Assembly (NCBI RefSeq): GCF_056746865.1
Contig: NZ_CM163382.1
Reading direction: 5' to 3' (one strand)
Length of the DNA: 64,000 nucleotides
Below are positions 3,097 to 56,584 of the stretch, piece by piece; position 1 is the first letter of the stretch; every line of letters starts with the position of its first letter. The position numbers and the translations under genes were made by a program. Below the pieces are notes generated by a model. It was not told the DNA's origin. It saw only the letters and a program-made list of their open reading frames with translations, and searched no databases.

Positions 3097-5093
3097 ATTC
3101 ACTACGTCCGGAATTATTAGAACTCACGCCGCAGGCCCTGACGGCGTTAAGCAATGCCGGTTTTGTTAAGCGCAGTCTTAAGGAACTGGAAAATGGCAAC
3201 GTCCCGGAGATCAGCCATGAGAACGGCGCTTTAATCGCCACCTTCAGTGACGGTGTCCGCACCCAGCTGGCGAACGGTCAGGCACTGAAAGAGGCTCAGT
3301 GCAGCTGCGGGGCCAGCGGCATGTGCCGCCATCGCGTGATGCTGGTTTTAAGTTATCAGCGACTTTGCGCCACCACCCAGCCTACGGAAAAAGAAGAAGA
3401 GTGGGATCCGGCAATCTGGCTGGAAGAACTGGCTACCCTTCCCGATGCCACCCGCAAACGCGCACAGGCGCTGGTCGCTAAAGGCATCACCATTGAGTTG
3501 TTCTGTACGCCGGGCGAAATTCCCTCTGCCCGCTTACCGATGAGCGATGTGCGTTTTTATTCCCGCAGCAGTATTCGTTTCGCCCGTTGTGATTGTATTG
3601 ACGGCACACTTTGCGAACATGTCGTACTGGCTGTGCAGGCCTTCGTCGAGGCCAAAACTCAGCAAGCGGAATTTACTCATTTAATCTGGCAGATGCGCAG
3701 CGAACACGTCACACCATCTGACGATCCGTTTGCCAGCGAAGAGGGCAACGCGTGTCGTCAATATGTTCAGCAATTAAGTCAGGCATTATGGCTGGGCGGC
3801 ATCAGCCAGCCGCCAATCCATTACGAGGCCGCTTTCAGCCGCGCACAGCAGACGGCGGAACGCTGCAACTGGCGATGGGTGAGTGAATCGCTACGGCAAC
3901 TGCGCGCCAGCGTTGATGCCTTCCACGCCCGCGCCAGCCACTATCATGCCGGAGAATGCTTACGTCAGCTTGCGGCATTAAACAGTCGATTAAATTGCGC
4001 ACAAGAGATGGCCCGGCGCGACAGTATCGGTGAAGTTCCTCCTGTACCGTGGCGCACGGTCGTTGGCGCTGGCATTGCCGGAGAAGCAAAGCTTGATCAT
4101 CTGCGGCTGGTGTCTTTAGGTATGCGTTGCTGGCAGGATATTGAGCAGTATGGTTTACGCATCTGGTTCACCGATCCCGACACCGGCAGTATTTTGCATC
4201 TTTCGCGTAGTTGGCCGAGAAGCGAACAAGAAAACGCTCCCGCTGCAAAACGTCGGCTGTTTAGTTTTCAGGCTGGCGCACTGGCAGGTGGGCAAATTGT
4301 TTCACAAGCAGCAAAACGCAGTGCCGATGGCGAACTGCTATTAGCTACCCGCAACCGCTTGAGTAGTGTTGTTCCACTGTCGCCAGACGCCTGGCAAATG
4401 TTGAGTGCGCCGCTGCGCCAGCCAGGCATTGTGGCTTTGCGGGAATATTTACGCCAGCGTCCCCCCGCCTGCATACGACCACTCAACCAGGTCGATAACT
4501 TATTTATTCTGCCGGTCGCTGAGTGTATTTCGCTCGGTTGGGATAGCAGCCGCCAGACACTGGATGCGCAGGTCATTAGCGGCGAAGGGGAAGATAATGT
4601 GCTGACGTTATCCCTTCCGGCATCTGCCTGTTCTCCTTTTGCCGTTGAACGCATGGCGGCGCTTTTGCAACAAACAGACGACCCCGTGAGTCTGGTTTCT
4701 GGCTTTGTCAGCTTTGTAGAGGGGCAATTGACACTGGAACCACGGGTGATGATGACAAAAACCCGCGCCTGGGCGCTGGACGCAGAAACTGCGCCTGTGG
4801 CACCGCTACCTTCTGCCAGCGTTTTGCCTGTGCCGTCTACCGCTCATCAGTTGCTGATGCGCTGCCAGGCGTTACTTATTCAACTGCTCCATAACGGCTG
4901 GCGCTATCAGGAACAGAGTGCTATTGGTCAGGCAGAGTTGCTGGCGAATGACCTCACCGCGGTCGGTTTTTATCGGCTGGCACATGTGTTGGCACAATTT
5001 CGTAATACAGAAAGCGAGGCACGGGTAGAAGCAATGAATAACGGTGTTTTGATTTGCGAACAATTATTCCCCATGCTTCAGCAACAAGGATGA
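3093..5093 (+). CDS. yehQ: SWIM zinc-finger protein
   Basis: 666-aa ORF; two CxCx5CxH SWIM signatures (CSCGASGMCRH and CDCIDGTLCEH); ATGA overlap with yehP stop. Exact start not verified. Confidence 0.75.
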   Translation: MNSLRPELLELTPQALTALSNAGFVKRSLKELENGNVPEISHENGALIATFSDGVRTQLANGQALKEAQCSCGASGMCRHRVMLVLSYQRLCATTQPTEKEEEWDPAIWLEELATLPDATRKRAQALVAKGITIELFCTPGEIPSARLPMSDVRFYSRSSIRFARCDCIDGTLCEHVVLAVQAFVEAKTQQAEFTHLIWQMRSEHVTPSDDPFASEEGNACRQYVQQLSQALWLGGISQPPIHYEAAFSRAQQTAERCNWRWVSESLRQLRASVDAFHARASHYHAGECLRQLAALNSRLNCAQEMARRDSIGEVPPVPWRTVVGAGIAGEAKLDHLRLVSLGMRCWQDIEQYGLRIWFTDPDTGSILHLSRSWPRSEQENAPAAKRRLFSFQAGALAGGQIVSQAAKRSADGELLLATRNRLSSVVPLSPDAWQMLSAPLRQPGIVALREYLRQRPPACIRPLNQVDNLFILPVAECISLGWDSSRQTLDAQVISGEGEDNVLTLSLPASACSPFAVERMAALLQQTDDPVSLVSGFVSFVEGQLTLEPRVMMTKTRAWALDAETAPVAPLPSASVLPVPSTAHQLLMRCQALLIQLLHNGWRYQEQSAIGQAELLANDLTAVGFYRLAHVLAQFRNTESEARVEAMNNGVLICEQLFPMLQQQG

Positions 5094-44702: not shown

Positions 44703-45560
44703 ATGAAATACATTGGAGCGCACGTTAGTGCTGCTGGCGGTCTGGCAAATGCCGCAATTCGCGCCGCCGAAATCGACGCAACCGCGTTTGCCTTGTTCAC
44801 CAAAAACCAACGTCAGTGGCGTGCCGCACCGCTCACGACGCAAACCATCGATGAATTCAAAGCCGCCTGTGAAAAATATCACTACACATCGGCGCAAATT
44901 CTTCCCCACGACAGTTATCTGATTAACCTCGGACATCCGGTCGCTGAAGCTCTGGAAAAATCGCGCGATGCGTTTATAGATGAAATGCAGCGTTGCGAAC
45001 AGCTGGGGCTTTCTTTGCTCAACTTCCACCCTGGCAGCCATCTGATGCAGATTTCAGAAGAGGATTGCCTTGCGCGTATTGCCGAATCCATCAACATTGC
45101 GCTGGATAAAACTCAAGGTGTGACAGCGGTGATTGAAAACACCGCCGGTCAGGGCAGTAACTTAGGGTTTAAATTCGAACATCTCGCGGCGATTATCGAC
45201 GGCGTGGAAGATAAATCCCGCGTCGGCGTCTGCATTGATACCTGCCATGCTTTTGCTGCCGGGTATGATTTGCGTACTCCAGCCGAATGCGAGAAAACGT
45301 TCGCGGATTTTGCCCGTATTGTCGGCTTTAAGTATCTGCGCGGGATGCACCTTAACGATGCGAAAAGCACCTTTGGCAGCCGCGTTGACCGCCATCATAG
45401 CCTCGGTGAAGGCAATATCGGTCATGATGCGTTCCGCTGGATCATGCAGGACGACCGTTTCGACGGCATTCCGCTGATCCTTGAAACCATCAACCCGGAT
45501 ATCTGGGCAGAAGAGATCGCCTGGCTGAAAGCGCAACAAACTGAAAAAGCGGTAGCCTGA
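44703..45560 (+). CDS. nfo: endonuclease IV
   Basis: 285-aa [20 protein letters not shown]... Confidence 0.95.
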
Positions 45561-45562
45561 AG

Positions 45563-46651
45563 ATGAACAACCGGGAGAAGGAGATCCTTGCAATTTTACG
45601 GCGTAACCCGCTGATTCAGCAGAACGAAATTGCTGATATGCTGCAAATCAGCCGTTCGCGCGTTGCGGCGCATATTATGGATTTAATGCGCAAAGGTCGA
45701 ATTAAAGGCAAAGGTTACATTCTCACCGAGCAGGAATACTGCGTAGTGGTGGGGACAATCAATATGGATATTCGCGGGATGGCGGATATCCGTTACCCGC
45801 AAGCGGCTTCTCATCCCGGTACCATTAATTGCTCGGCAGGCGGCGTTGGACGCAATATCGCCCACAATCTGGCGCTGTTAGGCCGCGACGTCCATTTGCT
45901 TTCAGTGATTGGCGATGACTTTTATGGCGAAATGCTCCTGGAAGAAACGCGCCGCGCCGGCGTGAATGTCTCCGGCTGCGTTCGTTTACATGGTCAAAGC
46001 ACATCGACGTATCTGGCAATTGCCAATCGAGACGATCAAACCGTGCTGGCGATTAACGATACCCATCTGCTGGATCAGTTGACACCGCAACTACTGAACG
46101 GGTCGCGCGATTTACTTCGTCATGCGGGCGTGGTACTGGCTGATTGCAACCTGACAGCCGAGGCGCTGGAGTGGGTCTTTACCCTCGCTGATGAGATCCC
46201 GGTGTTTGTCGATACCGTTTCAGAATTCAAAGCGGGCAAAATCAAACACTGGCTGGCGCATATTCACACCCTGAAACCCACTTTACCGGAGCTGGAAATT
46301 TTATGGGGACAGGCGATCACCAGCGATGCTGACCGTAATGCCGCAGTGAATGCGTTGCATCAGCAAGGCGTTCAGCAACTGTTTGTTTATTTGCCCGATG
46401 AGTCAGTTTATTGCAGCGAAAAGGATGGAGAGCAATTTTTGCTGACCGCGCCAGCGCATACGACAGTAGACAGTTTTGGTGCTGACGATGGTTTTATGGC
46501 GGGCCTGGTATATAGCTTTCTGGAGGGAAACAATTTCCGTGACAGCGCCCGTTTTGCGATGGCCTGCGCGGCAATTTCACGCGCCAGCGGCAGCTTAAAC
46601 AACCCTACCCTGTCTGCCGATAACGCGCTGTCATTAGTGCCAATGGTGTAA
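45563..46651 (+). CDS. yeiI: PfkB-family carbohydrate/nucleoside kinase with N-terminal HTH domain
   Basis: 362-aa ORF 2 bp after nfo; N-terminal HTH (ILRRNPLIQQNEIADMLQISRSRVAAHI) followed by a PfkB kinase fold; paralogous to psuK. Confidence 0.8.
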   Translation: MNNREKEILAILRRNPLIQQNEIADMLQISRSRVAAHIMDLMRKGRIKGKGYILTEQEYCVVVGTINMDIRGMADIRYPQAASHPGTINCSAGGVGRNIAHNLALLGRDVHLLSVIGDDFYGEMLLEETRRAGVNVSGCVRLHGQSTSTYLAIANRDDQTVLAINDTHLLDQLTPQLLNGSRDLLRHAGVVLADCNLTAEALEWVFTLADEIPVFVDTVSEFKAGKIKHWLAHIHTLKPTLPELEILWGQAITSDADRNAAVNALHQQGVQQLFVYLPDESVYCSEKDGEQFLLTAPAHTTVDSFGADDGFMAGLVYSFLEGNNFRDSARFAMACAAISRASGSLNNPTLSADNALSLVPMV

Positions 46652-46654
46652 CAA

Positions 46655-46752
46655 TGTTGCCGGATGCGACGCTTAACGCGTCTTATCCGGCCTACAAATC
46701 AGGCAATTTCAGCAAGTAAATGTAGGCCTGATAAGCTTGCGCATCAGGCAAT
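46655..46752. repeat. REP pair (BIME-like) between convergent yeiI and nupX
   Basis: TTGCCGGATGCGACGCTTAACGCGTCTTATCCGGCCTAC and GTAGGCCTGATAAGCTTGCGCATCAGGCA. Confidence 0.8.
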
Positions 46753-46757
46753 GACAC

Positions 46758-48008
46758 TCAAGCTAAACCAATAAAGAACCCGGCAATGGTCGCACTCATC
46801 AAGTTGGAAAGCGTCGCCGCCGCCAGCGCGCGTAAACCAAGCTGGGCGATTTCCGGCGCACGGTGTGGCGCAACCGCAGAAAATGCGCCAACCACCACCC
46901 CGATAGAACCAAAGTTAGCGAAACCGCACAACGCGAAAGAAATAATCGCCACGGTTTTAGCATCCAGAGTGCCAGCTGTTTGCAGATAAGGTGAGAAATT
47001 GAGGTAAGCGACAAATTCATTTATTGCCAGCTTCTGTCCAATCAAACTCCCGGCAAGATTCGCATCACTCCAGTCAACCCCCATCACCCATGCCAGTGGA
47101 GCCAACAGGTAACCTAAAATGGACTCCAGCGAGGCATGTTCAAAACCAAACCAGCCGCCAACGCCGCCGATAATACCGTTAATCAACGCAATTATTGCAA
47201 CAAATGCCATCACCACTGTCGCCACACCTGCGGCGATTTTCAGCCCGGTCATTGCCCCTGTAGCGGCGGCTTCAATAATGCTTTTTGGCGGTGTTTCGGT
47301 GAAAGAGAGGTTATTAAAGGAAACCTGCGAAGATTCCGTAGCCGGGCTTAACAGGCGGGCAAACAAGATCCCGCCGGGGATCGCCATTAACGATGCCGCT
47401 AGCAGATATTCCACAGGCACGCCCAGTGCGGCGTAACCAATCATTGTCGAACCAGCAATCGAGGCCATGCCACTACAAATAGCCGTAAATAATTCATTGC
47501 GATTCAGACGATCGATAAAGGGTTTGACGATTGCCGGAATTTCGTTTTGCCCGAGGAAAATGGTAGTGACCGCGACGAATGACTCAATCTTGCTGATATT
47601 CAATGCTTTCTGGAATATACCGCCGAGAATGCGAATTAAGATCCCCATCACACCGATGTAGTAGAGAATACTCACCAGTGCTGTAACGAAGATAATTGCC
47701 GGTAATACCCTGAAACCAAAGATAAATCCAGCGCCATCAAATAAGGTGTCCATTTTCGGTCCGACCAGAGAACCAAAGATAAATGCGCTACCCGCGTCGC
47801 TGTACGCCATCACTTTATGCACGCCAAAAGCGACTTTTTCAGCGACCCAACGCCCTGGCGGTAACCAAAGCATAATGCCGCCAATCACGACCTGTAACAC
47901 TAACGCCGCGCCAACGGTACGCAGGCTGATCTTCTTCTTGTTTACTGACAGCAAAAACGCAATTGCCAGCAATACCACCATTCCCAGAACACTTCTCATG
48001 ACATCCAT
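46758..48008 (-). CDS. nupX: NupC-family nucleoside permease
   Basis: 416-aa multi-TM ORF; paralog of the ORF at 51258..52508. Confidence 0.85.
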   Translation of the reverse strand: MDVMRSVLGMVVLLAIAFLLSVNKKKISLRTVGAALVLQVVIGGIMLWLPPGRWVAEKVAFGVHKVMAYSDAGSAFIFGSLVGPKMDTLFDGAGFIFGFRVLPAIIFVTALVSILYYIGVMGILIRILGGIFQKALNISKIESFVAVTTIFLGQNEIPAIVKPFIDRLNRNELFTAICSGMASIAGSTMIGYAALGVPVEYLLAASLMAIPGGILFARLLSPATESSQVSFNNLSFTETPPKSIIEAAATGAMTGLKIAAGVATVVMAFVAIIALINGIIGGVGGWFGFEHASLESILGYLLAPLAWVMGVDWSDANLAGSLIGQKLAINEFVAYLNFSPYLQTAGTLDAKTVAIISFALCGFANFGSIGVVVGAFSAVAPHRAPEIAQLGLRALAAATLSNLMSATIAGFFIGLA

Positions 48009-48107
48009 AGTTATTATCTCTTCATGTCATTTTGGGCGACGGCTTTCTGCCCATCAGAAATAGCCGGGCCTGCATCTTGCGATACTGACCCGGCTTGTTA
48101 TCAACAC

Positions 48108-48252
48108 TTAATGGGTTTTGATGTAGCCGCGCACGCACTCTTCGACTAATCCCCAGAACCAGTCGGTATCAATAGTGATGCCGACTTTGGTATTAGCGGG
48201 CTTGCCAAGAACGCCCAGCTCGTCGCAGACAGTACGCCCATAGCAAGGGCCA
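48108..48252 (-). pseudogene. rihB: 3' fragment of pyrimidine-specific ribonucleoside hydrolase gene, separated from its 5' part by an IS insertion
   Basis: Minus-strand translation ...[47 protein letters not shown] continues exactly from the ...MYVEVDVNS end of the 5' fragment across the IS. Confidence 0.85.
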
Positions 48253-48307
48253 CTGAACCGCCCCGGAAATCCTGGAGACTAAACTCCCTGAGAAAGAGGT
48301 AAACAGG

Positions 48308-48634
48308 ATGACTAAAAATACTCGTTTTTCCCCCGAAGTCCGTCAGCGGGCGATTCGTATGGTTCTGGAAAGTCAGGATGAATATGACTCACAGTGGGCG
48401 GCAATTTGTTCCATTGCCCCAAAGATTGGCTGTACGCCGGAGACTCTGCGTGTCTGGGTTCGCCAGCATGAGCGGGATACCGGGGGCGGTGATGGTGGGC
48501 TCACCAGCGCTGAACGTCAGCGTCTGAAAGAGCTGGAACGTGAAAATCGTGAACTGCGCCGCAGTAACGATATCCTTCGCCAGGCTTCCGCTTATTTTGC
48601 GAAGGCGGAGTTCGACCGCCTCTGGAAAAAATGA
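48308..48634 (+). CDS. IS3-family transposase OrfA (HTH DNA-binding)
   Basis: 108-aa [26 protein letters not shown]... with leucine-zipper-like C-terminus; A6 run at its 3' end. Confidence 0.9.
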
Positions 48635-49521
48635 TGCCACTGCTGGATAAGCTGCGTGAGCAGTACGGGGTCGGACCGGTATGCAGCGAACTGCATATTG
48701 CCCCGTCAACGTATTACCATTGTCAGCAACAGCGACATCATCCGGATAAACGCAGTGCCCGTGCGCAGCACGACGACTGGCTGAAGAGAGAGATACAGCG
48801 CGTATACGATGAAAATCATCAGGTGTACGGTGTGCGTAAAGTCTGGCGTCAGTTGTTACGGGAAGGAATCAGGGTGGCCAGATGTACAGTGGCACGTCTC
48901 ATGGCGGTTATGGGACTTGCCGGTGTTCTCCGGGGTAAAAAGGTCCGTACGACCATCAGCCGGAAAGCCGTTGCCGCAGGCGACCGCGTAAACCGTCAGT
49001 TCGTGGCAGAACGACCTGACCAGCTGTGGGTGGCTGATTTTACTTACGTCAGCACATGGCAGGGCTTCGTCTATGTGGCGTTTATCATTGATGTGTTTGC
49101 CGGATACATCGTGGGGTGGCGGGTCTCATCGTCTATGGAAACGACATTCGTGCTGGATGCGCTGGAGCAGGCGTTGTGGGCCCGTCGTCCGTCTGGCACC
49201 ATCCATCACAGCGATAAAGGCTCTCAGTATGTGTCACTGGCCTATACGGAGCGACTAAAAGAAGCCGGATTACTGGCATCAACAGGGAGTACAGGCGACT
49301 CGTATGACAACGCGATGGCTGAGAGCATCAATGGTCTTTACAAAGCGGAGGTAATACACCGTAAGAGCTGGAAAAACCGTGCAGAAGTGGAACTGGCCAC
49401 ACTAACGTGGGTGGACTGGTATAACAATCGACGATTGCTGGGAAGGCTGGGCCATACTCCTCCGGCAGAAGCAGAAAAAGCTTATTATGCTTCCATCGGA
49501 AACGATGATCTGGCAGCCTGA
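48631..49521 (+). CDS. IS3-family transposase OrfB (DDE integrase catalytic domain)
   Basis: 296-aa ORF in the -1 frame relative to orfA, overlapping at AAAAAATGATG; DDE-type core; probably expressed as an OrfAB fusion by -1 frameshifting. Confidence 0.9.
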
Positions 49522-49563
49522 GTTCACAGATAAAACACTCTCCAGGAAACCCGGGGCGGTTCA

Positions 49564-50362
49564 CACTGTTGACGTCCACTTCGACGTACATCTCCTGGGT
49601 TTTAATGCCATCAGGGTTAATCAGATAACCGATGCAGGTGGCGTCATGCACCGGGCCGCCAGCCAGGCCGTAGTTTTCGAACTGCGTTTTTAGAGTGAAA
49701 TTCATGATGTCGCTGAACAGCTCTCCGGCGGGGCCGCCTACCCTTTCCATCCGGGCAATCACGTCCGGGGTGCAAACAGTCTGGTTGGTGAGATCGAGGC
49801 CCATCATCACCAACGGAACGCCGGAGGTGAACACCACGCGTGCGGCTTCCGGGTCGGCAAAGATGTTGAACTCGGCAGATGGGGTGAAGTTGCCTGTACC
49901 GTAAGCGCCGCCCATTAGCACAATTTCACGGATTTTCGGCAGGATCGCGGGTTGCATACGCATTGCCACCGCGATATTTGAAAGCGGACCAACCGGCACC
50001 AGAGTGATATCACCATCGCTTGCCATCAGGGTATCAATGATATATTTCACCGCATGAGTGCTTTCTGCCTGGCGGGTCAGCGGCCCGAATACCGGGCCAT
50101 CAAGTCCGGTTTCACCGTGAATATTATCGGCAACGATTTGTTGACGCATAATGGGCTGTGGCATCCCCGCATAAACCGGAACATTAATCTCCAGTTTCTG
50201 GCAAACATTCAGGCCATTAATTAATGTTTTATCAAGCGTCTGATTACCCGCCACAATGGTGATGCCTAATAAATCAATCACCGGATGTTTCGCGGCCATC
50301 ATTATGGCAATAGCATCATCATGACCCGGATCACAATCCAGAATAATTTTTCTCTTTTCCAT
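49564..50362 (-). pseudogene. rihB: 5' part of pyrimidine-specific ribonucleoside hydrolase gene (N-terminal DCDPGHDD motif), truncated by the IS; the ORF runs on into IS sequence
   Basis: ORF 49328..50362 begins [22 protein letters not shown]... (nucleoside hydrolase signature) and switches to unrelated IS-derived residues after ...VDVNS. Confidence 0.85.
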
Positions 50363-50530
50363 TGTTTATTTCCTCTGTTTCCAGTTGCGTTATTTTTTCT
50401 ACAGCAAAGAAAATTCGACCGGGCCGATGATTGAATCTTAACAACAGCGTAAGTATGCTAAATATGAGAAATCTCATAGCGGATAAACATCGTGAAAGAA
50501 ATCCACAATAATGATCTTAAGCAGCAATTG

Positions 50531-51190
50531 ATGAGTGAATCCGCGTTTAAGGATTGCTTTTCAACGGATGTTTCAGCCGATACGCGGCTGTTTCATTTTT
50601 TAGCGCGTGACTACATAGTGCAGGAAGGGCAACAGCCGTCCTGGCTGTTTTATCTGACGCGAGGCCGCGCCAGGCTTTACGCCACGCTTGCTAATGGTCG
50701 CGTGTCGCTGATCGATTTCTTTGCCGCTCCCTGTTTTATTGGCGAGATTGAGTTAATCGACAAAGACCATGAACCGCGTGCGGTGCAGGCTATTGAAGAG
50801 TGTTGGTGCCTTGCGCTCCCTATGAAACATTACCGTCCACTGTTATTAAACGACACCCTATTTTTACGAAAACTTTGCGTCACCTTAAGTCATAAAAATT
50901 ATCGTAATATTGTTTCTTTAACTCAGAATCAATCATTTCCGTTAGTGAATCGCCTGGCAGCTTTTATATTACTCTCACAAGAAGGTGATCTTTATCACGA
51001 AAAGCATACGCAAGCGGCAGAGTATTTAGGCGTTTCTTATCGACATCTTTTATATGTTCTCGCGCAATTCATTCACGACGGTTTATTAATTAAAAGCAAG
51101 AAAGGATATCTAATTAAAAACAGAAAGCAGTTGTCAGGACTGGCGCTGGAGATGGACCCGGAGAATAAATTCTCCGGGATGATGCAGTAA
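50531..51190 (+). CDS. yeiL: Crp/Fnr-family transcriptional regulator
   Basis: ORF with cNMP-binding-like domain and C-terminal HTH; start assigned at [10 protein letters not shown] (an upstream in-frame ATG at 50492 is also possible). Confidence 0.75.
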
Positions 51191-51204
51191 AAAATAATCT
51201 GCAA

Positions 51205-51252
51205 TAGCGCGATTGCCGGATGCAACGCTTAATAAGGCGTACATCCGGCAAT
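51205..51252. repeat. REP element between convergent yeiL and psuT
   Basis: GATTGCCGGATGCAACGCTTAATAAGGCGTACATCCGGCAATG. Confidence 0.75.
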
Positions 51253-51257
51253 GAAAC

Positions 51258-52508
51258 TCAAGCTAAACCAATAAAGAACCCGGCAATGGTCGCGCTCATC
51301 AGGTTGGAAAGCGTTGCTGCTGCCAGCGCCCGTAAACCAAGCTGGGCGATTTCCGGCGCGCGTTTTGGCGAAATAGCCGAAAATGCGCCAACGACAACAC
51401 CGATAGAACCAAAGTTCGCAAAACCACAAAGCGCAAAGGAGATAATCGCCACGGTTTTCACTTCCAGCGTGCCGCCCGTTTGCAGGTATGGGGAGAAACT
51501 CAGGTAAGCGACAAATTCGTTAATCGCCAGTTTCTGCCCAATCAGGCTACCCGCAAGGTTGGCATCACTCCAGTCCACACCCATGATCCACGCCAGCGGT
51601 GCCAGCACATAGCCAAAAATACTTTCCAGAGAGGCATTGGCGAAACCAAACCAGCCGCCAATTCCGCCGATAATGCCGTTGATCAGCGCAATAATTGCGA
51701 CAAACGCCATTACCACCGTCGCTACACCAGCGGCGATTTTCAGCCCGGTCATCGCACCGCTCGCCGCTGCTTCGATAAAGCTTTTTGGCGGCGTTTCGCT
51801 GAACGACAGATTTTCAAATGTGACCTGCGAAGGCTCGGTTGCCGGGCTAAGAATACGTGCAAACAAAATACCGCCAGGGATCGCCATCAGCGATGCCGCT
51901 AACAGGTAGTCAATTGGTACGCCCATTCCGGCATAACCAATCATCATCGAACCAGCAATGGACGCCATCCCGCTACAAATAGCCGTAAACAACTCGTTGC
52001 GATTCATGCGATCGATAAACGGTTTAACGATCGCCGGGATCTCATTTTGCCCGAGGAAAATAGTAGTAACCGCAACAAAAGATTCGATTTTGCTGATGTT
52101 GAGGGCTTTCTGGAAAATGCTGCCAAGGATGCGAATCAGCAGCCCCATCACGCCAATGTAGTACAGCAGACTGATGAGCGCAGTAACGAAGATAATCGCC
52201 GGAAGTACGCGAAAGGCGAAGATAAAGCCCGCGCCATCAAACAGGACATCCATTTTCGGCCCGACCAATGAACCAAAAATAAAGGCGCTACCGGCATCAC
52301 TGTAAGACATCACTTTATGAACGCCTAATGCCGCCTGTTCTACTGCCCATTTTCCCGGTGGGAAGTAGAGCATGATGCCACCAATAGCGATTTGCAGCAG
52401 CAGTGCGGCTCCAACCGTGCGCAAACTGATGCCCTTTTTATTCACTGACAACAGAAATGCTATTGCCAGTAACACCACCATCCCCACAACACTTCTCATT
52501 ATATCCAT
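51258..52508 (-). CDS. psuT: NupC-family nucleoside (pseudouridine) transporter
   Basis: 416-aa ORF, paralog of nupX; upstream of psuG/psuK on the same strand. Confidence 0.85.
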   Translation of the reverse strand: MDIMRSVVGMVVLLAIAFLLSVNKKGISLRTVGAALLLQIAIGGIMLYFPPGKWAVEQAALGVHKVMSYSDAGSAFIFGSLVGPKMDVLFDGAGFIFAFRVLPAIIFVTALISLLYYIGVMGLLIRILGSIFQKALNISKIESFVAVTTIFLGQNEIPAIVKPFIDRMNRNELFTAICSGMASIAGSMMIGYAGMGVPIDYLLAASLMAIPGGILFARILSPATEPSQVTFENLSFSETPPKSFIEAAASGAMTGLKIAAGVATVVMAFVAIIALINGIIGGIGGWFGFANASLESIFGYVLAPLAWIMGVDWSDANLAGSLIGQKLAINEFVAYLSFSPYLQTGGTLEVKTVAIISFALCGFANFGSIGVVVGAFSAISPKRAPEIAQLGLRALAAATLSNLMSATIAGFFIGLA

Positions 52509-52601
52509 AATGATTTTCCCTTCATGCCAGTAAACCCGGCGTCAGCGCCAGGTTTTGGTATGCTTGATGAGTACGGGCGACGGCTTTCTGCCCGTCAGAA
52601 A

Positions 52602-53540
52602 TTAACCCGCGAGACGCTGGTATTCTTTGGCAATTTCGCTCGCCAGAATGGCGTTGTTGAACACCAGTTGGATGTTGGATTTCAGGCTGTCACCGCCAGT
52701 CAGTTCAGCAACACGAGCCAGCAGGAACGGTGTGCTTTCTTTACCAATAACGCCCTGCTCTTCGGCTTCGGCGACGGCTTGATCTATGGCTGCATTGATA
52801 GATTCCTCCGGCATCGCAAACTGTTCCGGGATCGGATTCGCCACCACCAGGCCACCGTTCAGACCGCTTTGCCATTTCACCGCCATTGCACGAGCGATTT
52901 CCGTGGCACTATCAAGGCGAATACTGACTTCAAACGGGCTGGTGCGGCAGAAAAACGCAGGCAGCGCTTTGGTCTGATAGCCAATTAACGGCACACCGAA
53001 GGTTTCTAAATACTCAGTGGTTAATCCTAAATCGAGAATAGATTTCGCCCCGGCACAAACAACGGTGACATTAGTATTTGCCAGTTCTTGCAAATCGGCA
53101 GAAATATCGAAGGTATGTTCCGCCCCGCGATGCACACCACCAATTCCCCCTGTGGCAAATACTTTAATTCCGGCAAGCGCCGCAATAATCATCGTTGAAG
53201 CAACGGTAGTTGCGCCATTTTTTCCGGCGGCAACAACAAAAGGTAAATCGCGACGACTAACTTTGGTCACGTTATGCCCTTCACTACCCAGCAATTCAAT
53301 TTCTTCTTTGCTTAAACCCACTTTCATCACGCCGCCAATAATGGCGATAGTGGCAGGTACAGCGCCCTGTTTACGAATAGTTTCTTCAACTTCAATTGCG
53401 GTCTGGGCATTTTGTGGGAACGGCATCCCGTGAGAAATAATGGTCGATTCCAGCGCCACAACCGGTTTTTTGTTTTTTAAAGCGTCCTGCACTTCCGGGG
53501 AAATTTGTAATAATTCAGGGGAAATTTTTAATTCAGACAT
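52602..53540 (-). CDS. psuG: pseudouridine-5'-phosphate glycosidase
   Basis: 312-aa ORF; overlaps psuK by 13 nt. Confidence 0.85.
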   Translation of the reverse strand: MSELKISPELLQISPEVQDALKNKKPVVALESTIISHGMPFPQNAQTAIEVEETIRKQGAVPATIAIIGGVMKVGLSKEEIELLGSEGHNVTKVSRRDLPFVVAAGKNGATTVASTMIIAALAGIKVFATGGIGGVHRGAEHTFDISADLQELANTNVTVVCAGAKSILDLGLTTEYLETFGVPLIGYQTKALPAFFCRTSPFEVSIRLDSATEIARAMAVKWQSGLNGGLVVANPIPEQFAMPEESINAAIDQAVAEAEEQGVIGKESTPFLLARVAELTGGDSLKSNIQLVFNNAILASEIAKEYQRLAG

Positions 53541-54469
53541 TCTGCGTTCTCCACTAACGATATAACGTTGGCAATCGATAAATCGGGGTTATTGGTGTAT
53601 TCACAGGAGAGCGCCATTGACGAACATCCCTGTGCGAAACGAACAGATTCGGCAAACGGCATTCCGTCTACCCAACACGAAGCAAGTCCCGCCATCATGG
53701 CATCGCCCGCTCCGGTAACATTAATGACATTGGTTTTGATCGGCGCAGACCAACCACTTTCACCGCTGATATCACTGTAATAAACGCCGTCGCCGCCCAT
53801 GCTCATTACCAGTCGGTTCAGGCCATGTTGATGGAACCAGGCAGCAACTTTTGCCACATCTTCACGCCCTGACAAAGCAATCCCACTCAAGGTTTCCGCT
53901 TCAAGGCGGTTTGGCTTCAGGGTGTGGATCTGATTTAGACGGTCACGCACTTTGACACATTTCCATGCCGAAACCGGATCGACAAATACAGGTACATTGG
54001 CGGCATTATCCAGAATCCATGCCAGTGCCTCTTCACTGATATTACAGTCCGCGACAATGACCTTTGCCCTTTGAATAAATTCACGGTGCTGTGCGAGATA
54101 TTCAGCTGTAATAGCGTTGCTAATATTCATGTCATTTATAGCAACCAGCATTTCACCGGTATTATCGAGTAATGATAAATAGCTCGACGTGTTTTCTCCC
54201 GGCACAATCAGGCATTTATCGACATAAACACCAGATTGATTGGTTTGCGTTAGCAACGATTGACCATAAAAATCACTGCCTACTGCGCTCAGTAGCCAGG
54301 ATTTATTCCCCAGCAACGCCAGGTTTTGTGCAATATTGCGCCCGACTCCACCAGGCGTAAATTTTATTTTACCTGGATTTGAATCCGCATAATTTAATGA
54401 TTCATGTGAATATCCGGCGACATCAATATTCGCCGAACCTATAATTACGACATAATCCTTTTCGCGCAT
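53528..54469 (-). CDS. psuK: pseudouridine kinase (PfkB family)
   Basis: 313-aa ORF with PfkB motifs (GGVGRN, ...GAGDAMMAG). Confidence 0.85.
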   Translation of the reverse strand: MREKDYVVIIGSANIDVAGYSHESLNYADSNPGKIKFTPGGVGRNIAQNLALLGNKSWLLSAVGSDFYGQSLLTQTNQSGVYVDKCLIVPGENTSSYLSLLDNTGEMLVAINDMNISNAITAEYLAQHREFIQRAKVIVADCNISEEALAWILDNAANVPVFVDPVSAWKCVKVRDRLNQIHTLKPNRLEAETLSGIALSGREDVAKVAAWFHQHGLNRLVMSMGGDGVYYSDISGESGWSAPIKTNVINVTGAGDAMMAGLASCWVDGMPFAESVRFAQGCSSMALSCEYTNNPDLSIANVISLVENAECLN

Positions 54470-54715
54470 AGCACGTCCTCTGGTAAAAAATTACCAACCC
54501 TGTCAATCCACAAGAATATTGATACTGCAAAGACGGTTTAAACATGTGTTCATATTTAAACATGTGCTCATAGTATGCATGTTTTACGTAAAGTAAATTA
54601 CCGCCAGAGAGGCAAAATGGGCAGATTTGAGCAGGCTCACAAAACGCGATTAAATGCCTGAATTATAAAAACGGGGAATTTGTGACGGGATGCACAGAAC
54701 AGGAACAATAAAAAA

Positions 54716-54735
54716 GGGCAGAAATTAATCTGCCC
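54716..54735 (-). terminator. Putative intrinsic terminator downstream of the fruBKA operon
   Basis: GGGCAG-AAATTAAT-CTGCCC hairpin followed by a U6 tract on the minus strand. Confidence 0.55.
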
Positions 54736-54892
54736 TTGAGGAAATAACCTTAGTGTTTGATGAAGGTTTCAGGTTTCTACTAAAAGATAAAACCATTTAA
54801 ATTCATAAAATTACATTCACAAACCGGTCATTCTCTTTGCGCGCATCAAATGTTACAGGGCAGGAAATTTCTGCCCTGTAACACACCTTTTA

Positions 54893-56584
54893 TTACGCTG
54901 CTTTCGCTACTGCGTCCACTTCCGGACGTTTCAGGAAGGCATAGGCCAGACCCGCCACCAGCGTACCGGCAATAATGGCTACCAGGTAACCCAGTACCGG
55001 CGTAATAGCGCCAGGGATCAGCAGAACAAACAGACCACCGTGCGGTGCCATCAGTTTCGCACCAATCGCCATTGAGATTGCGCCAGTCAGCGCCCCACCC
55101 ACGATACAGCACGGCAGCACACGCATCGGATCACGAGCAGCAAACGGAATTGCACCTTCCGAAATGAAGCACAGTCCCAATACCAGAGCGGCTTTGCCAC
55201 CTTCCTGCTGCGCTTTGTCGAATTTGCGACGCGCCACCATTGTTGCCAGGCCCATTGCCAGCGGTGGCACCATACCTGCCGCCATAATCGCCGCCATCGG
55301 GCCATAGGTTTGAGTACTCAGCAGACCCACACCGAATGCGTACGCTGCTTTGTTTACCGGACCGCCCATGTCAGTACACATCATGCCACCGAGGATCGCC
55401 CCCAGCAGAACCGCATTCGCAGTCCCCATGGTCTGCAGCCAGTGAGTCAACCCTTCGAGAATGCCAGCAACCGGTTTACCGATCAGGTAGATCATCGCCA
55501 GACCGACCACCAGACTGGAAATTAGCGGAATGATCAGAATCGGTTTCAGCGCCTCCATACTCTGTGGCAGTTTCAATTGCGTACTGATTAACTTCGCAAT
55601 GTAACCAGCCAGGAAGCCCGCAATAATACCGCCAATGAAGCCAGAACCAGTGCTGACCGCCAGCATACCGCCAATCAGACCCGGCGTGAGACCCGGACGA
55701 TCGGCAATGGAAAAGGCAATATAACCTGCCAGTACCGGCACCATCAACGCAAAGGCTGAACCACCACCAATCTGCATCAGCGCCGCAGCCAACGTACCCG
55801 GCTCTTTAAACGCTTCGATACCAAAAGCAAAAGAAAGCGCGATACACAGACCACCTGCAACGACCATCGGCAGCATGTAAGAGACGCCAGTCAGCAAGTG
55901 ACGGTAAGCGCCTGCACTCTCTTTCTTACCTTCAGTGGTCGCTGTTTGAGTTTTGCCCGCCGGTTCATACGGCGTTGCTTCAGCAACCGCATTATCCAGT
56001 TCCTGCGCGGTTTTCTTCAGCGCCAGACCGGTAGAGGTACGATACATCGGTTTACCAGCAAATTTCGCCAGATCCACTTCGATATCTGCCGCCACAATCA
56101 CCAGATCCGCTGCTGCGACTTCTTCGGGAGTGATTGCATTACCCGCGCCAACAGAACCACGGGTTTCAACTTTCACCCACCAGCCACGTTTTTTCGCTTC
56201 GGTTTCAATGGCTTCAGCCGCCATAAAGGTGTGTGCTACGCCAGTCGGGCAAGCAGTCACCGCAACTACGCGTTTCGGACCGCTGGCGGCAACCGGTGCT
56301 GTCGCAGCGACCGGCGCAGTGTAAGGTTTCGCATGGCCTTTGGCTTCACTCAGGAACAGCTCAGGGTGCGCAACTGCCCGGGAAATATCGCCCAGCCAGA
56401 CATTTTTACCGTTCAGCGCGCTGTCGTTCGGGATGGAATCACCGAGAACAATCGCCATTTCAGCGTCGTTCGGATTGTCGATGATTTCCAGTTTTGCTTT
56501 TCGCGCCGCCGCGCCCAGCAGGGTCTTCGCCATATAGGCGCGTGCCTGACCGAGATTAGCGTCAATAATCAGCAGCGTTTTCAT
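54893..56584 (-). CDS. fruA: fructose PTS EIIB'BC component
   Basis: 563-aa ORF, large membrane EIIC domain; fruBKA order. Confidence 0.95.
   Translation of the reverse strand: MKTLLIIDANLGQARAYMAKTLLGAAARKAKLEIIDNPNDAEMAIVLGDSIPNDSALNGKNVWLGDISRAVAHPELFLSEAKGHAKPYTAPVAATAPVAASGPKRVVAVTACPTGVAHTFMAAEAIETEAKKRGWWVKVETRGSVGAGNAITPEEVAAADLVIVAADIEVDLAKFAGKPMYRTSTGLALKKTAQELDNAVAEATPYEPAGKTQTATTEGKKESAGAYRHLLTGVSYMLPMVVAGGLCIALSFAFGIEAFKEPGTLAAALMQIGGGSAFALMVPVLAGYIAFSIADRPGLTPGLIGGMLAVSTGSGFIGGIIAGFLAGYIAKLISTQLKLPQSMEALKPILIIPLISSLVVGLAMIYLIGKPVAGILEGLTHWLQTMGTANAVLLGAILGGMMCTDMGGPVNKAAYAFGVGLLSTQTYGPMAAIMAAGMVPPLAMGLATMVARRKFDKAQQEGGKAALVLGLCFISEGAIPFAARDPMRVLPCCIVGGALTGAISMAIGAKLMAPHGGLFVLLIPGAITPVLGYLVAIIAGTLVAGLAYAFLKRPEVDAVAKAA

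Follow-up and report, generated by a model that had tools for sequence, protein, structure and literature searches.

Organisation of the locus

The DNA analysed here, which we call the window, is a stretch of 64,000 nucleotides from contig NZ_CM163382.1 (assembly GCF_056746865.1), and it carries the Escherichia coli yeiH-nfo-yeiI / nupX-rihB / yeiL / psuT-psuG-psuK / fruA region. This work is concerned with two genes of that region, nupX (46758..48008, minus strand) and psuT (51258..52508, minus strand), which encode permeases of the CNT/NupC family and which have almost identical 3′ ends in this strain. A first-pass annotation had read these ends as the remainder of an old local tandem duplication that took a repetitive extragenic palindromic (REP) element with it. 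The genes that it named are all found where it placed them, and each family assignment is backed by Pfam.

The genes form two modules. Module M1 consists of psuK (53528-54469, minus strand; Pfam PfkB), psuG (52602-53540, minus strand; Pfam Indigoidine_A) and psuT, together with yeiI (45563..46651, plus strand), which encodes a kinase with a winged helix-turn-helix (HTH) domain. Both psuG and psuK are also annotated in E. coli RM14516. Module M2 consists of yeiL (50492..51190, plus strand), a CRP/FNR-type regulator with the Pfam domains cNMP_binding and HTH_Crp_2, then rihB and nupX. Here rihB is split by an insertion sequence (IS) into a 3′ fragment (48108..48253, minus strand) and a 5′ fragment (49564..50362, minus strand). 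The two permeases are the transporters of their modules. The role of M2 is the uptake and hydrolysis of pyrimidine ribonucleosides, and that of M1 concerns pseudouridine.

Two old paralogs in two modules

NupX and PsuT are 416 aa each and their genes align without a gap, in keeping with the earlier description of equal-length NupC-family permeases with scattered substitutions. The genes are identical at 998 of 1251 nt (79.8%) and the proteins at 369 of 416 residues (88.7%). Identity at codon positions 1, 2 and 3 is 88, 96 and 55%, and over the last 45 codons the two proteins do not differ. Each protein has matches to all three CNT families of Pfam (Nucleos_tra2_N, Gate and Nucleos_tra2_C; E = 1e-15 to 1e-72). 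A BLAST comparison of the two neighbourhoods, which had been suggested as a dot-plot, returned one colinear match, 46742-48029 against 51242-52529, that reaches 21 nt ahead of the ATG at one end and 16 nt past the stop codon at the other; the similarity spans the whole gene and goes well beyond a 3′ segment. A second, separate match (27/28) pairs 48034-48061 with 52575-52602, upstream of both start codons. Homology between the copies is limited to these ~1.3 kb of gene and short flanks, and the intervening 3.2 kb are unrelated.

The synonymous divergence (dS) of nupX from psuT is 1.23 in the window and 1.23-1.39 in E. coli, with a ratio of nonsynonymous to synonymous divergence (dN/dS) of 0.05-0.07. 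For comparison, the dS of psuT is 1.21 between E. coli and C. freundii and 0.75 between E. coli and E. albertii. A bootstrap neighbour-joining tree was built from codon positions 1+2 of nt 1-700, another tree from nt 701-1245, and a protein tree besides. In nt 1-700 the PsuT sequences of Escherichia and Citrobacter form a clade at 92%, and E. coli NupX was paired with E. coli PsuT in 0 of 200 replicates. In nt 701-1245 the signal is scrambled, with C. freundii nupX falling among the Citrobacter psuT genes, so that the phylogenetic signal differs along the gene. The trees group NupX with the rihB-linked transporters of other genera. Given a paralog dS as large as that of psuT across genera, and given the tree of nt 1-700, the nupX/psuT split predates the divergence of Escherichia and Citrobacter. 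Among E. coli strains the synonymous divergence of nupX alleles is unusually high (dS 0.10-0.21); for psuT the single pair measured, the window and K-12, gave 0.08.

We gathered the contexts of the locus across genera through protein homologs and contig look-ups. M1 occurs without M2 in E. albertii, Citrobacter sp. FP75, C. youngae, C. werkmanii, Leclercia UBA3338 and K. michiganensis. These loci have a single transporter between psuG and yeiI, with neither rihB nor yeiL, and this transporter is 92.8-98% identical to PsuT except in Leclercia UBA3338 (88%); for E. albertii and Citrobacter the amino acid identity is 94-98%. M2 occurs alone at the fruA/nfo site, without psuKGT and without yeiI, in Leclercia adecarboxylata, a Salmonella enterica lineage, Buttiauxella and a Logan contig, and it is found at other genome sites in Superficieibacter, K. 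spallanzanii and Dryocola. C. freundii and Kluyvera sp. STS39-E have both modules, arranged as in E. coli. In every locus examined outside E. coli that has a nupX-type transporter, yeiL adjoins rihB-nupX.

In genomes labelled Leclercia adecarboxylata the fruA/nfo site is occupied either by psuKGT with yeiI or by yeiL-rihB-nupX, as if the modules were alternative cassettes, provided that the species labels can be trusted.

The first-pass annotation was therefore right to see nupX and psuT as true paralogs and their duplication as old (dS 1.23, dN/dS 0.06). Its simple tandem or segmental duplication does not fit a homology of ~1.3 kb, modules that occur alone and a split that predates Escherichia and Citrobacter as separate genera.

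The shared 3′ end is a strain-level polymorphism

An exact 37-mer across the stop codon occurs twice in the window, at 46757 and 51257, and shuffled sequences gave no match to it. The near-identical coding ends that had been noted are thus real, although their reported positions, 46753 and 51253, were off by 4 nt. Identity continues past the stop codon at 14 of 16 flanking nt. We refer to the last 36 nt of the coding sequence plus these 16 nt as the alpha terminus; the copies at nupX (46742..46793, minus strand) and psuT (51242..51293, minus strand) agree at 50 of 52 positions. The genes are offset by 3187 bp in IS-free genomes; the round figure of 4500 bp in the window arose by chance when the IS was inserted.

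Among IS-free genomes the nearest to the window is E. coli RM14516, which has the same psuT sequence and shows 0 differences in the 5 kb from 50063 onward. Its nupX differs from the window allele at 32 sites, of which 10 are crowded into the last 55 nt and 22 are spread over the other 1196 nt; at 9 of those 10 the window allele has the psuT base. RM14516 is also without a 51-bp stretch that bears one of the REP elements described below. Relative to RM14516 the replaced patch lies at 46.5-47.0 kb and covers the 3′ end of yeiI, the REPs and the 3′ end of nupX. The window haplotype is a mosaic, and it is essentially identical to that of E. coli 118UI, which is without the IS.

Base-by-base typing of ~10 E. 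coli haplotypes revealed three types of terminus. The alpha type is GGTTTAGCTTGA followed by GT[G/T]TCATTGCC[T/G]GATG, the beta type GGTTTAGCGTAG followed by TGCGCGATTTATGAGCCGGATAAG, and the gamma type GGTCTGGCGTAA followed by TGCTCGATTTGTAGACCGGATAAAACG. Beta and gamma encode the same residues as alpha with other codons, stop codons and flanks. Written as (nupX, psuT), the window and 118UI are (alpha, alpha), K-12 is (alpha, gamma), RM14516, O157:H7 and NIPH17_0020 are (beta, alpha) and 2015C-3905 is (beta, gamma), so that all four combinations tested occur. It follows that in K-12 nupX and psuT do not share their ends.

We then surveyed 5426 complete E. coli genomes by BLAST with 52-nt probes. 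The alpha terminus was found at 4219 places in 4093 genomes, which means that it is present at both genes in just 126 of the 5426 (2.3%). Gamma at psuT was found in 2443 genomes, one subtype of beta at nupX in 1069, and the nupX flank of the window and K-12 type in about a quarter. Most E. coli strains have alpha at psuT but not at nupX; K-12 has it at nupX only. In strains with beta at nupX and alpha at psuT, the last 40 codons have a third-position identity of 0.57, which is at the level of the background (0.51) and argues that nothing intrinsic keeps the nucleotides alike. The near-identical 3′ ends in the window are recent and limited to certain strains. They are not a relic of the duplication, as had been proposed.

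Six plasmid records carry a psuT gamma terminus together with the rihB-yeiL segment. These are presumably chromosomal DNA captured on F-prime-like plasmids.

Identity tracts in other lineages

Tracts of identity that stand out from a diverged background are found in other lineages too, and some are much longer. In the cryptic Escherichia SCPM-O-B-8794 the two genes share a perfect run of 137 nt (nt 1078-1214; codon-shuffle P < 2e-4). In C. freundii there is a run of 83 nt (again P < 2e-4) and one of 54 nt across the stop codon, along with a stretch of 93-98% identity (nt 721-1251) that makes up the 3′ 40% of the gene. In 2015C-3905 identity is raised at ~nt 711-790 and 931-990, and the identical run of K-12 has a codon-shuffle P of 0.02. 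The leader, i.e. the second BLAST match above, is homogenised in Escherichia (27/28); the C. freundii and Kluyvera pairs differ in the loop of the hairpin that it encodes. In E. albertii, the part of psuT that has changed to a beta terminus of the nupX type is confined to the final ~10 nt, which fits either a single-module state reached by deletion or an ancestral one.

The termini also hint at a direction. The gamma terminus CTGGCGTAA resembles the psuT orthologs of other genera, and the alpha terminus TTAGCTTGA resembles the beta terminus TTAGCGTAG at the yeiI-side position. These resemblances favour a transfer of alpha from nupX to psuT, which we infer to be the most likely direction.

REP elements and flanks

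The statement that a REP follows each transporter gene was correct, as REP-type palindromes lie 3′ of both. Extragenic imperfect palindromes with consensus arms are found at 46659-46691, 46721-46749 and 51212-51252, and a scan of the whole window with strict REP patterns found these copies only. The unit at 46659..46691 is of the Y type, lies beside the yeiI stop codon and consists of the inverted repeat GCCGGATGCGACGC/GCGTCTTATCCGGC. It is found at the same position in E. albertii and Citrobacter, and is the older, yeiI-side REP. The unit at 46721..46749 is of the Z type, lies directly 3′ of the nupX stop codon and makes a pair with the Y-type unit that resembles a bacterial interspersed mosaic element (BIME). 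The palindrome 3′ of psuT (51212..51252) is 41 nt long, and its distal arm is common to the gamma-type psuT flank of K-12. An Rfam scan of 45500-55000 (E <= 1) returned only the ALIL pseudoknot of the IS3-family element and two weak, sub-threshold matches to naRNA4, one of which concerns the Y-type REP. The naRNA4 family of Rfam derives from a REP.

The Z-type REP lies within the 51-bp stretch, which is confined to nupX alleles of the alpha type; E. coli RM14516, NIPH17_0020, O157 and 2015C-3905 lack it, as does the cryptic Escherichia SCPM-O-B-8794. In other E. coli, the beta flank on the yeiI side and the gamma flank on the psuT side are ~82% alike over 50 nt, and 9 of the 10 non-REP bases directly 3′ of the stop codon match. 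The beta flank is common to E. albertii, and at least its REP also to Citrobacter. Between the yeiI-side REP (46657-46676) and the psuT-side REP (51213-51232) 19 of 20 bases agree, at an offset that differs from that of the gene match. No REP was found 3′ of psuT in C. freundii and Kluyvera, which have a GC hairpin there instead. The likeness of the beta and gamma flanks, together with the lack of a psuT REP in these two lineages, suggests that an older conversion in the Escherichia lineage probably copied the yeiI-side flank and its REP to the psuT side. The proposal that a REP was carried along holds in so far as a REP-bearing flank seems once to have been copied (~82% for the flanks, 19/20 for the arms), but the REPs that now lie closest to the two stop codons differ in type (Z at nupX, Y at psuT).

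Probable gene conversion and its alternatives

We think it likely that the locus has undergone recurrent ectopic gene conversion between anciently diverged, modular permease genes, followed by allelic recombination. In E. coli, C. freundii and Kluyvera the interval from fruA to nfo holds both modules next to each other, which makes the permease genes direct repeats ~3.2 kb apart. In this model their closeness, and a likeness of 80-95% in the most constrained parts, would allow homologous recombination to paste stretches of one copy repeatedly over the other. The pasting would happen mostly at the 3′ end and the leader, and the middle of the gene would retain the ancient divergence. The 52-nt alpha terminus would be one pasted tract, and recombination between strains would then have shuffled the alleles and given the rare (alpha, alpha) haplotype seen here. 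The bias towards the 3′ end may reflect the identical C-terminal residues, which offer a long homology and would let conversion there leave the protein unchanged.

Several points weigh against this model. The 36-nt identical coding run of the window is only marginally unusual in itself (codon-shuffle P = 0.037), and its significance comes from the comparison with other strains rather than from the run. The direction of transfer rests on few informative bases. Since psuT acts as an outgroup, scattered sites at which nupX matches it can be ancestral; for this reason a gene-wide count of nupX alleles with the psuT base was rejected as evidence of conversion, being uninformative outside the clustered tracts. 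The shared REP consensus inflates the identity of the flanks. The neighbour-joining trees, with their short internal branches, are weak, and the monophyly of all NupX-type sequences has a support of just 50%. Just ~10 haplotypes were read base by base, and the frequencies are counts of BLAST matches to 52-nt probes. Finally, gene conversion is indistinguishable here from a double crossover with a transient duplicate or with foreign DNA.

If the shared end and flank were instead what remains of a local tandem duplication that took the REP, one would expect what is indeed seen of the genes themselves, namely equal-length true paralogs, colinear homology past both ends of the coding sequence, and beta and gamma flanks that, with their Y-type REP, are about as alike (~82%) as the genes (80%). 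An unconstrained remnant should however have diverged like the rest, where third positions are 55% identical, and not be 50/52 identical; alpha is polymorphic, occurs at both genes in a small minority of genomes and is absent from K-12 psuT. Furthermore, C. freundii and Kluyvera have the same two-gene layout with no psuT REP and a flank homology of <= 6 nt, the 3.2 kb between the copies are unrelated, and the split is older than outgroups that hold only one module. We regard this history as quite unlikely, and for alpha it is already largely refuted. A related idea, which we rate as improbable but slightly less so, is that yeiL-rihB-nupX entered or left by a single crossover within the 3′ end of a transporter gene, through Campbell-type integration of a circular intermediate or the reverse, leaving the crossover repeat at both ends of a 3.2-kb insert. 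The alpha copies do flank, as direct repeats, a unit of module length, in the M1-only E. albertii and C. youngae the psuT 3′ end and flank are the positional orthologs of the flank next to nupX in two-module genomes, and module content varies among genera at the fruA/nfo site. Within E. coli, though, rihB-yeiL is present in 5418 of the 5426 genomes, which speaks against ongoing gain or loss, and on the same grounds a continuing flip-in and flip-out of the rihB module by nupX x psuT recombination is ruled out. The two-module layout is common to the cryptic clade, C. freundii and Kluyvera, and hence much older than alpha, and 98% of genomes keep the module without having alpha at one or both ends. 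Crossovers of this kind may nevertheless be a source of the differences between genera.

It could also be that selection at the nucleotide level acts on the last ~50 nt and the proximal REP arm, for example on a structure at the mRNA 3′ end that affects stability or termination. REPs can stabilise upstream mRNA, both genes end in one, and their last 45 codons encode the same residues. However, the common beta and gamma alleles spell these residues with different codons, stop codons and flanks, and 3′ third-position identity is at background in beta/alpha strains, which leaves this reading very improbable. The least credible reading is chance, a run of 36-38 nt being then simply the tail of the distribution for two genes of 80% identity that encode a strongly conserved C-terminus. 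The codon-shuffle values (only 0.037 in the window and 0.02 in K-12) would allow this, but the identity extends into the non-coding flank, the differences between nupX alleles are 10-fold clustered at exactly this spot, and other lineages have far longer tracts.

Leader hairpins

The second stretch of similarity between the two neighbourhoods encodes an RNA hairpin upstream of each permease gene. At nupX it occupies 48034..48061 (minus strand), with the stem (A)UGGGC/GCCCA(A) and the 11-nt loop AGAAAGCCGUC. Its copy at psuT (52575..52602, minus strand) abuts the psuG stop codon. Conservation of the hairpin extends over ~10 enterobacterial genera (23 distinct sequences); it has a GGGC/GCCC core, a stem of 5-7 bp and a loop of 11 nt, in which certain A, G, G, G and U positions are nearly invariant. 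In the alignment 84% of cells are paired, and shifting the register lowers this to <= 55%. A single pair is CG in 12 sequences, UA in 5 and UG in 4, Leclercia shows a compensatory change from GC to AU, and the covariation score is 0.213 compared with 0.155 in shuffles (2 of 500 reach 0.213).

The Rfam scan described above gave no match to the leader hairpin. The motif was also not found upstream of more distant CNT homologs (loci L008, L010-L081), which indicates that it is restricted to NupX/PsuT loci. Some of the genomes that have the hairpin carry no yeiI and others no yeiL, and neither YeiI nor YeiL can thus be its obligatory partner. We tentatively propose, as one possibility among others, that the hairpin is an undescribed cis-acting RNA element that sets transporter expression in both operons. 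It would then act, for example, as a determinant of processing or stability, or be bound by a general factor or a ligand.

The interval that separates psuG from psuT encodes a second hairpin, CCUGGCG-CUGA-CGCCGGG followed by UUU (52535..52552, minus strand), which could be an intra-operon attenuator. Escherichia, Citrobacter, Kluyvera and Leclercia all have it conserved ahead of psuT; E. coli, Citrobacter and Salmonella do not have it ahead of nupX. On the nupX side, a GC-rich inverted repeat (AGCCGGGCCTGCATC/GATACTGACCCGGCT; 48062..48095), also folded, lies between the rihB stop codon and the leader hairpin. A scan for promoter and terminator consensus sequences found no informative sites near the transporter ends or the leaders.

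yeiI, the disrupted rihB and the decay of nupX

The first-pass annotation described yeiI as a psuK-like kinase gene with an added HTH domain. Pfam agrees, with HTH_24 at residues 1-48 (E = 1e-10) and PfkB at residues 58-348 (E = 7e-68) of YeiI. Amino acid identity between yeiI and psuK is ~40%; their relationship is much older than that of nupX and psuT and represents a separate event. As all of the M1-bearing loci examined have yeiI along with psuKGT and none of the M2-only loci has it, YeiI belongs, by co-occurrence, with pseudouridine catabolism and not with RihB and NupX.

Two deeply divergent allele classes of yeiI coexist in E. coli. Class 2 (2015C-3905, ZLWT) has ~80% nucleotide identity to class 1 (K-12, the window) and 91% to E. 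albertii yeiI. Among the 5426 genomes ~3295 have class 1 and ~2058 class 2, with few intermediates. The divergent block starts exactly at the nfo/yeiI boundary and fades inside the 3′ end of nupX.

The disruption of rihB was also described correctly. The element (48254..49563, plus strand; 1310 bp) belongs to the IS629/IS1203 group of the IS3 family, and a matching element is annotated as 'IS3-like element IS1203 family' in E. coli records. It has an intact orfA (HTH_Tnp_1) and orfB (rve), an ALIL frameshift pseudoknot (121.5 bits), the terminal inverted repeats TGAACCGCCCCGG and a 3-bp target duplication, CAC, at 48251-48253 and 49564-49566. Its removal restores an intact frame of 313 aa. The CAC duplication, the intact reading frames and the pseudoknot suggest that the insertion is probably recent.

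In ~1000 of the 5426 genomes (about one in five) nupX is a 66-nt remnant. The remnant results from an internal deletion whose junction shows TAA(C) microhomology; it is this deletion, and not the loss of the rihB module, that is the common form of loss within E. coli. An internal stop codon is found in nupX of O157:H7 TR01. Module M2 appears to be dispensable in several lineages.

Relation to known systems

The classic cases of ectopic conversion are tufA/tufB of Salmonella and E. coli and the rRNA operons. The tuf genes are homogenised over nearly their full length and lie far apart. Like these systems, nupX and psuT bear the marks of copying by homologous recombination between paralogs of the same genome, with lineage-specific tracts and conflicting trees along the gene. 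Unlike tufA/tufB, they lie ~3.2 kb apart, their tracts are short (~50-500 nt), fall mainly at the 3′ end and in the leader and are polymorphic among strains of the species, and their central regions remain distinct, as do their activities according to one transport study.

Typical enterobacterial REPs and BIMEs are, as here, imperfect palindromes of ~35 nt with GCC[G/T]GATG...CATC[C/A]GGC arms that lie 3′ of the stop codons of convergent genes. What sets this locus apart is that a REP arm is part of the converted tract, that a REP-bearing flank was apparently copied between paralogs, and that the REP content on the nupX side varies among strains through a 51-bp insertion or deletion. The E. 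coli K-12 locus, psuKGT (yeiC-yeiN-yeiM) with rihB (yeiK), yeiL and nupX (yeiJ), has the same position, order and annotations as the window. It differs in having alpha at nupX only, gamma at psuT, and an intact rihB where that of the window is interrupted by the IS629-type element.

NupX and PsuT share their three Pfam domains with the other members of the CNT family (NupC, vcCNT), and published trees place them in the vcCNT-containing branch, apart from NupC (PMC11241209). Unlike NupC and vcCNT, NupX takes up uridine and cytidine with low efficiency and PsuT was not seen to take up uridine, cytidine or xanthosine, its role with pseudouridine having been deduced from operon context (PMC11241209). 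The two substrates are probably distinct. Part of the substrate assignment that the first pass regarded as lacking had thus already been made, for NupX, but YeiI was still uncharacterised in 2022 and 2025, and a machine-learning call of 'pseudouridine kinase' for it was criticised on the grounds that PsuK already carries out that reaction (PMC9061257, PMC12506659). A literature search for nupX together with rihB found nothing, and no paper on conversion at the nupX/psuT locus was found. While the process itself is well known, this instance of conversion, the leader hairpin and the yeiI dimorphism appear to be undescribed.

The current understanding of nucleoside salvage is unchanged by these findings. 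They do show that K-12 is unrepresentative of E. coli at this locus, that the 3′ 40% of nupX and psuT is unsuited to orthology or phylogeny, and that a 'shared flank' in one genome can be a strain-level accident. Tying YeiI to the pseudouridine module narrows the search for its substrate or operator, and the leader hairpin is flagged as a candidate regulatory element. Above all, the locus is a compact and well-sampled case of partial concerted evolution, in which two neighbouring permease genes keep distinct cores while their ends would have been repeatedly overwritten.

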